Positions 58,969-61,900 of a stretch of DNA of 64,000 bases are shown here, piece by piece. Position 1 is the first letter of the stretch; each line of letters begins with the position of its first letter. The position numbers were made by a program, and so were the translations under genes. The notes beneath the pieces are model-generated. The model worked only from the letters and a program-made list of their open reading frames with translations. It ran no database searches and was not told the DNA's origin. The DNA comes from Leucoraja ocellata. Its lineage: Eukaryota. The stretch covers positions 62,001 through 126,000 of the forward strand of contig JAWMAR010002091.1 in NCBI GenBank assembly GCA_036785375.1, in the 5' to 3' direction.

Positions 58969-61900
58969 ATTTTACTTCGGAGTCACGTGAGTGATTCCGT
59001 GAAGATCCCAGCCCAGTGCGCAGGTGCGGCATTATCGCACAGCTGTGCAAACTGCGGCCAGCGGGAGTCGGGCGCTCCCGCAACCAAGGAACGTGAGGTA
59101 AGTTACTTACCTTAATCGGGCCTTGTGGTTTTTTGCTCCAGGGGGAGCAAAGTAGCAGAGGAAGCGGCCCCCGTTCGACTCCAGCGAAGGAGCCGACAGT
59201 GGAGGGGGATAGGCGCAAACGGGACCGCACACGCTGCGGACCGCTGACAGGGAGCTGCGCTGATGCCGGTCCGCTGAACAGCTGTTTGGTTAACAGCAGC
59301 GGACCGGAGGGAAATTAAAAAACCCGACCGGCAGCCCTGCAGACTCCTGACAAGGAGAATCGCCGCCCGGGAACCGCTACAATGCCGCCTGAAAAACGGC
59401 AGGCAGCCTCTAAATACAGGTAAGACAAAAACCTTACCAAATTACAGGTTCTACAGGAACCAACTTCCTCCAACACTGGAACAGGCTGGAGACAGCAAAA
59501 ACAAGTATGTCTGTCTCCCCAAGCCAGAGGAGGTTATGGAGTTCACCTCCAGGGAAAACGAGGGGCACTGGCTGAATGCCAAGGGAGCTGACACTCCTAC
59601 CCCAGTGCTATTGCACTAGCCATCTCCCTTGTTGAGGGATTGATACAACAATGGAGTTTGAGCTATGCCTCCTCCAATTTATAGCACACCTTTTGCTCCC
59701 TCTTTTGAGGCTAGCTAAGGAGGCCAGGGCTGGGCTGGCTTAAACGCTGGGCAGGCGGACGAGAACAGCAGTATGCCAGGGGAGCAGGATCAGGAAGAGC
59801 TACTGGGTGTCGTGGGCCACTACATGGCTCCTCCACGCGACCATCTTCCCAAACAAAGCCCTGCAGGAGTAGGCCTTTCTAGAGGCAAATCCGCAGGCAG
59901 CTGGGTCAGCAGACTCGCAGACAAGAGCTAAAAGCAGCGAATTCTGAAGCTCCTAACAGAAGGGTCAAGATGTCACCGCCTTTGCTCATTTTTCCACGGA
60001 TCATACTCACCTGGCAGGCGAGACGCCATGATCCAAGGTGGTTCTCCCAGGATGAGACTATCCCGTTGCACTACGAGTGTGCTGACGCCTAAGATGTTCC
60101 CAAATTTGGGATACTCGACTGACATTTGTGCATATAAGACCTGCCCGCAACCCCAAATATACGGGGCTATGCAAACCGCTGCTGCGGGAAGAGAGGCAGC
60201 TAAACCTGTGCGCCTCATGAGGGCAGGCCATGGAACGAGCAGGACATCGCATCCAACACCCAGCTGGCAGCACCCCTCGGCATCCACCAGCAAATATCGA
60301 ACAAGGACTGGTGAAAGCCTGGCGACCGCTTTACATTACCCCCATAGTTCTTTTTAGACAGGGGCCCAGAGCGGAGCCATGGGAAAATGCGCCGCCCCAC
60401 CGACAGCACCAGCATACCAGCAAAACTAAGCCTTCATGAAAAAACAATGAACATGGAGGTAGGTAGTCGGGTTCCTCCCAGTTTACACAAAATAAGGGTG
60501 TTCTACTAACTGCGGGGGGGGGCATTTACACTTGTTGATAAAGCATGGGATGCTGTCACAAATAACTAAAATATACTCAACAGTATTAGTGAATAAAAAC
60601 GAATTCAAATTGGGCATATTACCGCCAGTTCAGCAATGCGCCCAAAGGGCATTTTCTCCCTCTAAGAAAGAGGAGTGAGAAGGTTAAGCTGAACTAGAAA
60701 GGCTCATTACTAAACGGATCATGGGAGTAAACATGAACCATTGGAATTTGTATCGAATATATTCACCAAAACTACAAAAGATGGTGAATGTAGCATCATC
60801 ATTGATCTAATATCACTAAATAAATCTGTTGAGTATATACACTTTAAGATGGAGACGGGTTTTTGTCACTGCCAGACATCTGATCTCCAAAGGATACCTA
60901 TGGCGAGCATTGATATGGAAGATGCTAACTATCTTATACCCATACACTAGGATCATTATAGATACCTAAAAATTTTACCTGGATAATGGATATCCCGGTC
61001 AGGGCAACCATGGGAGTATAGAGCATTCCCAATGGTCTAACCTCAGCCCTAAACTATTATAAATATTAAAAAATGGCCATGAAAATATTAAGAAAACAAG
61101 CATAATCATGGCATATATTGGATAATATCCTCATATTAGGGGAACAAAGGAATTAGCTGTGGCAGCAGTTCTAGCTACGAAACAGCTCCCTAAAGCTCTG
61201 AGGTTCATCCCATGCCCAGATAAACCAGAATTGAAGCCGTTAACTACCATGGATTATCTGGGCTTCAATAACAATTCCATCCATATGACTGTTACTTTGC
61301 CAAGGTACTTGGGTCACTATAATCAAATCATGAATGTACCCACTGAAGCTATATCACAATTACAGTGGTGGGCAGACATATATTTGGCATAGTTTTCAGC
61401 CCTATTATCATCACCAATCCCAACTTGGTTATTAAAAACCGATGCCAGTACTTTAGGCTGGGGAGCAACTAAACTCCATATCCAGCACAGGTAACAGATG
61501 GACCAATTCACAAACATCGTTACCACACACACCGGGCATCAACTACTTGGGATTGGTGATCGCCTATTGGGCTAAAAAGCATATGCATTTCAGATGCAGC
61601 ACGTACATATGTGGTTACGGATTGATAATACTATGGTGGTGGCTTATATCAACCATATGGGGAGCATAAAAATCATTATTGTGCAACAAATGGTCAAACA
61701 GATCTGGCAATGGTGTGTCAAAAGACATTTTAACTATCAGCTGCCTATGACCTAGGAAGCTAGAACACAGTGGGAGACACCACGTCACGGGTAAAATTTA
61801 TGATAACATTGAATAGATGTCAAACCCAAAATATCTGCTAAAGGTATTAAGCAGTTTGGAAGCCAGATATCAATTTGGTTGCACAAGACGGAATCACCAG

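Follow-up and report, generated by a model that had tools for sequence, protein, structure and literature searches.

A protein-dead DIRS1-type family of Leucoraja ocellata carries a decayed piece of U1 snRNA, one of ten snRNA captures found in DIRS elements of the genome

The stretch of DNA analysed here (the window) comprises 64,000 nucleotides of the skate Leucoraja ocellata (assembly GCA_036785375.1, contig JAWMAR010002091.1, positions 62,001 to 126,000 of the forward strand), and all positions given are those of the window. An element of the DIRS1 type that contains a piece of U1 snRNA was identified near its right-hand end (Table 1). The assignment to this type rests on an internal complementary region (ICR) complementary to the inverted termini, on the order of the open reading frames and on dispersed, precise-ended copies without target duplication. 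The ICR matches the left end at 37 of 37 positions and the right end at 79 of 79, and the ends are as perfect as had been claimed from the sequence alone. Remnants of gag, RT-bearing pol and tyrosine recombinase (YR) genes follow one another in DIRS1-type order by tblastn, and the domains RVT_1 and Phage_integrase were found with Pfam in an open relative. Gag gave no Pfam match and is identified by its position and by similarity between families. The 5' segment listed in Table 1 likely recombined in from another DIRS family, judging from the BLAST comparison. The U1 piece lies 1,035 nt inside the 4.7-kb element.

Table 1. Features of the DIRS1-type element in the window
Feature	Position	Strand	Basis
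Complete non-autonomous DIRS1-type element, 4,735 bp, ends ATT...ATT, no target duplication	58969..63703	+	Fetched copies: same end points, different flanks
Left inverted terminal repeat	58969..59032	+	Inverted to 63594-63657 and to ICR 63364-63400
5' segment without BLAST match in near-intact relatives	59081..59660	+	BLAST
Splice-donor-like site (5'), folded into a near-palindrome	59096..59112	+	Sequence and predicted folding
Broken gag remnant, split by the U1 piece	59689..60411	+	tblastn with natural gag ORFs of relatives
Captured U1 snRNA piece, nt 1-132	60003..60130	+	Sense; Rfam and alignment with own-genome U1
ATACT microhomology common to U1 5' end and gag (codons H-T)	60003..60007	+	Empty-site comparison
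Broken pol remnant, presumably with RNase H/methyltransferase parts	60315..62212	+	tblastn along a relative's natural pol ORF; RT by Pfam in open family
Broken tyrosine recombinase remnant	62215..63195	+	tblastn
Second cargo, LINE-like 3' tail of about 100 nt	62692..62793	+	Present only in the young subfamily, missing from older copies
Internal complementary region (ICR, circle junction)	63364..63476	+	100% complementary to both element ends
Right inverted terminal repeat with extension	63594..63703	+	ICR comparison

At the position of the splice-donor-like site, the near-intact relatives L172 and L169 match the complement of the U1 5' end at 11 of 11 nucleotides. A donor-like motif near the left end (59096-59112, 59417-59439) is kept in four DIRS families at element position ~135-147, and it is predicted to be held in a hairpin both in the dead lineage and in an open family. 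Two other regions of the window were recorded. A second, diverged DIRS element lies on the minus strand at 1-3195; part of its pol is inverted, and its gag encloses a 22-nt tandem array (1729-2366). Exons resembling those of immunoglobulin heavy-chain constant regions, together with a V segment, were recognized by eye in the list of open reading frames (31540-37499 and 42142-42546, minus strand), and the element of Table 1 adjoins this immunoglobulin heavy-chain-like cluster.

The Rfam model RF00003 matches 60003-60144 with 55 bits (E = 5.5e-13) in an E-value scan of 59800-60400, the check that had been proposed for the piece; a scan of the window at the gathering score missed it because 55 bits lies below that score of 69.5. 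Over nt 1-132 the piece shows 84-86% identity to the two commonest variants of the U1 genes of the same genome, which score up to 156.8 bits. The U1-collinear segment inside a DIRS element described by the sequence-only reading is thereby established, as is its lack of poly(A) and target site duplication (TSD), neither of which is present at the U1 site in old or young copies. A functional U1 gene is not indicated, since the piece is truncated, lacks stem-loop 4 (SL4), has DIRS flanks and scores 55 against 69.5 bits. A processed pseudogene or chimera made by a LINE is not indicated either, poly(A), TSD and a LINE or SINE 3' partner all being absent at the site. The piece does start at the beginning of U1; the claim that it starts exactly at nt 1 is ambiguous, as nt 1-5 double as gag sequence in the microhomology.

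A 28-mer across the 5' junction has 859 exact matches genome-wide and its reversed control none, so that the family counts at least 859 copies. A 331-nt query across both junctions returned 1,610 candidates, and all 40 that were scored are full length at 98-100%. The 20 copies fetched were those with the best matches, so that the sampling is biased; 18 of them align along nearly the full element at 97-98%, both exact end motifs are present in 16, and the flanks differ in all 16. Many loci with the same junction and different flanking DNA, expected earlier for a mobilised family, are thus present.

Sister copies without U1 were detected with a gapped pattern (106 matches) and share about 79-90% identity with the window element; in several of them gag reads through the U1 site. 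Compared with these sisters, the U1 piece replaced 79 nt of gag, or 84 nt (28 codons) when the shared ATACT is counted, in line with the figure of about 28 codons given earlier. The sister family retains the 84 nt, and a simple later insertion without replacement is not borne out.

Less-derived junction patterns gave 14 non-C-variant matches, about 12 of them of the old type, against 859 young ones, and further copies were obtained with additional patterns. U1 nt 1-139 is present at 98.6% identity in three copies, other carriers hold nt 1-133 at 95-98%, and these are followed by copies with nt 1-132 at 94% and 87%. Because the older copies in this fossil series hold nt 1-139, both the ACTCACCTG 5' end and the termination at the Sm site arose late. 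The sequence-only reading, which had the piece end at the Sm site, was correct for the window copy and not for the capture, as the oldest copies reach nt 139 and the 3' end was eroded later; the altered 5' end that it noted is real and is a late change rather than the state at capture. The shortened 70K-binding loop that it reported represents a minor variant: of the first 100 matches listed, 90 were of U1 type, and 3 of these show it.

Two trees were built on sequence downstream of the insert with the U1 columns left out. The second used the region downstream of both U1 sites known in this lineage and includes a copy with a second capture (described below); L160, which has no anchor there, was left out. 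All U1 carriers lie on one side of a single branch in both trees (support 100/100 and 100/96), and the copies with nt 1-139 branch first if the root is placed among near-intact copies. Terminal branches measure about 1%, and the one leading to the young clade has a length of 0.043-0.049. The trees indicate that the gag-site U1 piece has one origin, in an already non-coding lineage. Amplification of this lineage continued as the U1 piece decayed from 98.6% to about 86% identity and its 3' end disappeared.

The longest open stretch in the fetched copies is at most 195 codons. In pol, young copies show about 36-42 indels that shift the frame, and 10-12 stops, when compared with the natural open frames of near-intact relatives; counts for gag are inflated by the non-homologous 5' segment. 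Many breaks in pol and YR are common to 18 of 18 young copies, and several of them also occur in 10-12 of the 16 U1-less sisters, from which it follows that the lineage was dead by the time U1 entered it. Judged from these shared breaks, the master was dead before amplification and the family is non-autonomous, and the earlier proposal that U1 travels as cargo of a non-autonomous DIRS family agrees with both the dispersed copies and the shared coding breaks. A candidate helper is the young DIRS family L195-L208, which has open gag, pol and YR frames of 457, 768 and 325 residues and termini about 90% identical to those of the dead family; the near-intact parents, with termini about 94% identical, are a second candidate partner. 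Many DIRS families of this genome are apparently full length and dead, with ladder-like trees.

Ten independent snRNA captures were found in DIRS elements of the genome (two of U1, five of U2, one of U5 and two of U6) by listing the sequence beside intact ends of U1, U2, U4, U5 and U6; by design, such pattern lists leave out roughly one event in four, and diverged events escape them altogether. The second U1 capture (nt 2-141, 99.3%) sits within the RT part of a sister element that has kept the gag sequence at the first site. U2 nt 1-90 lies upstream of the gag core in another DIRS family of about 560 copies, with 576 site matches, of which 98 are filled and two empty among the first 100 listed. 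A fresh U2 piece (nt 1-96) is nested in this older cargo and uses the same 5' junction again. U2 nt 1-185 with three extra A is present in pol, with ATC microhomology and 9 nt lost (4 of 12 sites filled, 8 empty). U2 nt 1-95 occurs late in pol and was filled in all 17 matches, among which no empty site was seen, and U2 nt 1-91 was found in RT in three copies. U5 nt 1-114 followed by a short TAAA is carried by 12 of 25 matches, and its empty site was seen. Arrival of this U5 as a U5-LINE chimera was ruled out, as the LINE tail is already present in the empty site. U6 nt 1-97 was found in two copies with common flanks and U6 nt 27-96 inside a U1-bearing DIRS copy. The six U4 matches include none in DIRS. 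All ten captures are in sense orientation (binomial p = 0.001) and nine begin at snRNA nt 1-2, the exception being U6 nt 27-96. No TSD, long A-tail or SINE/LINE partner was found at any of the ten, and the empty site was seen in related copies for seven.

Outside DIRS, 36 independent snRNA events were counted (U1 16, U2 1, U4 1, U5 4, U6 14). Genes, segmental duplicates, two chance-level matches of 16-17 nt and copies tied to snRNA-targeting Tx1-like elements were left out of this number, some of these exclusions resting on the listed flank only. The U6 retrocopies have an A-run of at least 9 in 12 of 14 cases and a TSD in 10 of 14. Eight of the 16 U1 retrocopies are U1-SINE chimeras that continue into one shared SINE-like repeat (L177, L181, L183, L185, L186, L193, L194 and L153), two pass directly into a LINE and three have TSDs; some lack both A-tail and TSD (e.g., L153/L154 and L180). 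The DIRS end motif has 34,806 exact matches genome-wide, two per element, which corresponds to about 17,400 elements and a genome share of about 2.4%, a lower bound taken from the end-motif count. With the query event and the internal U6 left out, 8 of 44 independent non-genic events lie in DIRS, and about one is expected at a share of 2.4% (p = 9e-6); the p value is 0.001 at a share of 5% and 0.07, not significant, at 10%. The enrichment is overstated, since an event is detected more readily once amplified than as a single copy, and orientation and junction form are the firmer evidence.

Several other arrangements of snRNA sequence were seen during this search. A Tx1-like LINE, whose ORF1 has zf-CCHC and ZCCHC3-type domains, appears to target U1 genes, with U1 nt 1-56 preceding its 5' end (L187, L188, L189, L179 and L192; 16 similar matches); at L192 its 3' end precedes U1 nt 44-153. 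U2 heads of nt 1-50/55 at L242, L251, L270 and L271 are as expected for Keno. At L328 and L340, U5 nt 3-34 is joined directly to an internal U1 piece in a two-snRNA chimera.

We infer template switching, together with packaging of snRNAs in DIRS, from the orientation, the junctions and the recurrence of the captures. The switch by RT in an ancestor that the sequence-only reading had put forward keeps the rank of an interpretation rather than a demonstration, and the nine further DIRS captures favour it. During minus-strand synthesis RT would leave the DIRS RNA and, with scant homology or none, jump to the 3' end of an snRNA held in the same particle, mostly trimmed and sometimes oligo-A-tailed. 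It would copy the snRNA to its 5' end and land again on the DIRS RNA at a match of 0-5 nt, or by a long match in the case of the nested U2; RNA ligation is an alternative for the 3' joint. The dead family would then be copied in trans by intact DIRS families. Only the termini and the ICR would be needed in cis, and cargo would therefore be tolerated and spread with the master lineage. Sense orientation implies that the snRNAs served as template and not as primer, and a role as primer was ruled out on this ground. Special recruitment of U1 through the splice donor of the element is a weakened candidate, U2 having been captured more often. The ends of the U1 pieces at 139 and 141 lie, as we take it, just past the Sm site, and the U2 ends at 90-96 just before it. 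The short runs of extra A are compatible with oligoadenylated decay intermediates. According to PMC4378196, MLV packages snRNAs in precursor, truncated and adenylated form. Overall, we consider it probable that the window holds a member of a protein-dead DIRS1-type family of at least 859 copies with a decayed U1, likely captured by template switching, likely copied in trans and likely carried as a passenger. A far-reaching version, in which DIRS particles routinely package trimmed, decay-bound snRNAs, RT jumps onto these from end to end in the manner of LINEs, the carriers form a recurring class in cartilaginous fish and the cargo itself gives dead elements an advantage over their sisters, appears rather unlikely.

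The main rival to template switching is insertion into a genomic master copy, in which the LINE machinery of the host or break repair placed snRNA cDNA in genomic DIRS copies that later became masters. The tail at 62692-62793 resembles the end of an abundant transcribed repeat by comparison with RNA reads, and a LINE-like tail is also present in the family bearing U2 and U5; such insertions into masters therefore probably occur and spread, and two of the lineages concerned gained such tails. The genome also produces many snRNA retrocopies, among them U1 examples without A-tail or TSD, and the U6 27-96 capture does not begin at the RNA 5' end. LINE-type insertions can also show 5' microhomology and target loss. 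Against this stand the uniform sense orientation and the absence from the DIRS events of the TSD, long A-tail or SINE/LINE partner that most background events have. In the U5 case, moreover, the neighbouring LINE tail is older than the U5, and the nested U2 reuses the 5' junction of the old cargo as a homology-guided switch would. The origin of the captures by this route is accordingly judged quite unlikely, and template switching is preferred.

The U1 cargo is likely a passenger without function. Fixed changes between old and young copies affect 12 of 127 sites in U1 and 198 of 3,886 elsewhere in the body (Fisher p = 0.04), so that the cargo changed faster, not slower. They strike the U1 5' pairing region, SL1, the U1A loop and the Sm flank, and the U1A loop is altered in 28 of 28 young copies. 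Carriers outnumber their empty sisters by 859 to 106 for U1 and by 98 to 2 for U2 (first 100 matches listed), an excess beyond what a pure passenger requires. These ratios could mean that snRNA cargo benefits the element by masking its splice donor in cis or by aiding export, stability or packaging, and that carrier subfamilies dominate for this reason. The double capture of U2 at one site points the same way, as does the prediction that the cargo 5' end of old copies pairs best with the donor of the element itself (-12.1 kcal/mol). However, the margin over the next site is just 0.1 kcal/mol, and the donor drops out of the top predicted partners after the T6C change. The main U1 burst also came long after capture (about 12 copies of the old type against 859 young, with a branch of ~0.045 to the young clade), and the cargo diverged faster than its flanks. 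The trees are ladders, and the contents of the current master, whatever they are, therefore dominate. A benefit from the cargo is held to be distinctly improbable.

It was also proposed earlier that the variant 5' end would pair with CAG|GTGAGT donors if transcribed, which would make the copies a source of a variant U1 snRNA recognising GTGAGT donors. The 5' end is indeed the exact complement of CAGGTGAGTAT, and the RNA-seq check suggested at that time gave low-depth coverage of the region. In two raw RNA runs, possibly from another species and read to 1-5%, the depth is approximately 1-7 per strand over the U1 bins, on both strands and not above that of the neighbouring bins. No discrete RNA starts or ends, and hence no discrete U1 product, were seen over the piece in these runs, whose oligo-dT and single-cell libraries could lose short RNAs. 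The piece is internal, with DIRS sequence on both sides and neither SL4 nor the flanks of an snRNA gene, unlike U1 genes, and its divergence is not slowed; the altered U1A loop of the young copies adds to this. The proposal is therefore not upheld, and a source of variant U1 is highly improbable. Spread of a single insertion by segmental duplication, or an assembly artefact, has a negligible chance of being correct, for although a few old copies (L143/144/146/147) have common flanks, the precise ends and different flanks of all 16 copies with both end motifs count as refutation, and both junctions occur together in one Logan contig labelled with a different organism.

The capture of snRNA by DIRS elements is thus real and more general than the single U1 case first noted, and it is probably without cargo function. 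DIRS cargo accounts for most of the sequence resembling U1 or U2 in this genome, where a few dozen U1 genes compare with 859 or more cargo copies; this matters for snRNA annotation and for read mapping. No report of snRNA cargo in DIRS was found in the literature searched, with most subscription papers and Repbase/Dfam lying outside its scope. DIRS-1 of Dictyostelium, as described in the available part of PMC7192593, likewise has inverted termini and an ICR, the gag/pol/YR layout and mobilisation in trans, whereas the skate family is full length with all open reading frames dead and carries snRNA cargo, of which that text gives no description. The same part of that source describes DIRS replication as poorly understood, even the primer being unknown. 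SINEU and the U1/U2/U6-LINE chimeras (PMC4494074, available text) likewise contain snRNA 5' portions acquired by a proposed template switch, serially, and amplified as families. In SINEU the snRNA forms the head, at the 5' end, of a short element that LINEs mobilise, whereas the skate U1 is internal to a YR element, requires two switches and has no tail; a term search of that text gave no mention of DIRS. Cassandra, Helenus and Ajax (PMC10886601, available text) are likewise non-autonomous retroelements with a piece derived from a small RNA, in their case 5S or tRNA pieces kept in the LTR as conserved Pol III promoters. Unlike these TRIMp3 elements, the skate family has an snRNA piece that is internal and not conserved; neither snRNA nor DIRS was mentioned in that text by term search. 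Precursor, truncated and adenylated snRNAs enter the particles of MLV, HIV and RSV (PMC4378196 and PMC4752605, available portions, which describe no fixation of snRNA inside the element), whereas the DIRS elements have the snRNA fixed inside them. Dada (PMC8869645) and Keno sit inside snRNA genes, so that transposon and snRNA are adjacent; in contrast, the snRNAs described here sit inside DIRS elements, and the empty sites are DIRS sequence. Small-RNA capture was thus known from LINE-mobilised and LTR elements, and the present captures extend it to tyrosine-recombinase elements. The ten dated captures form a natural record of the host RNAs that met the DIRS enzyme and of the jumps that it made.
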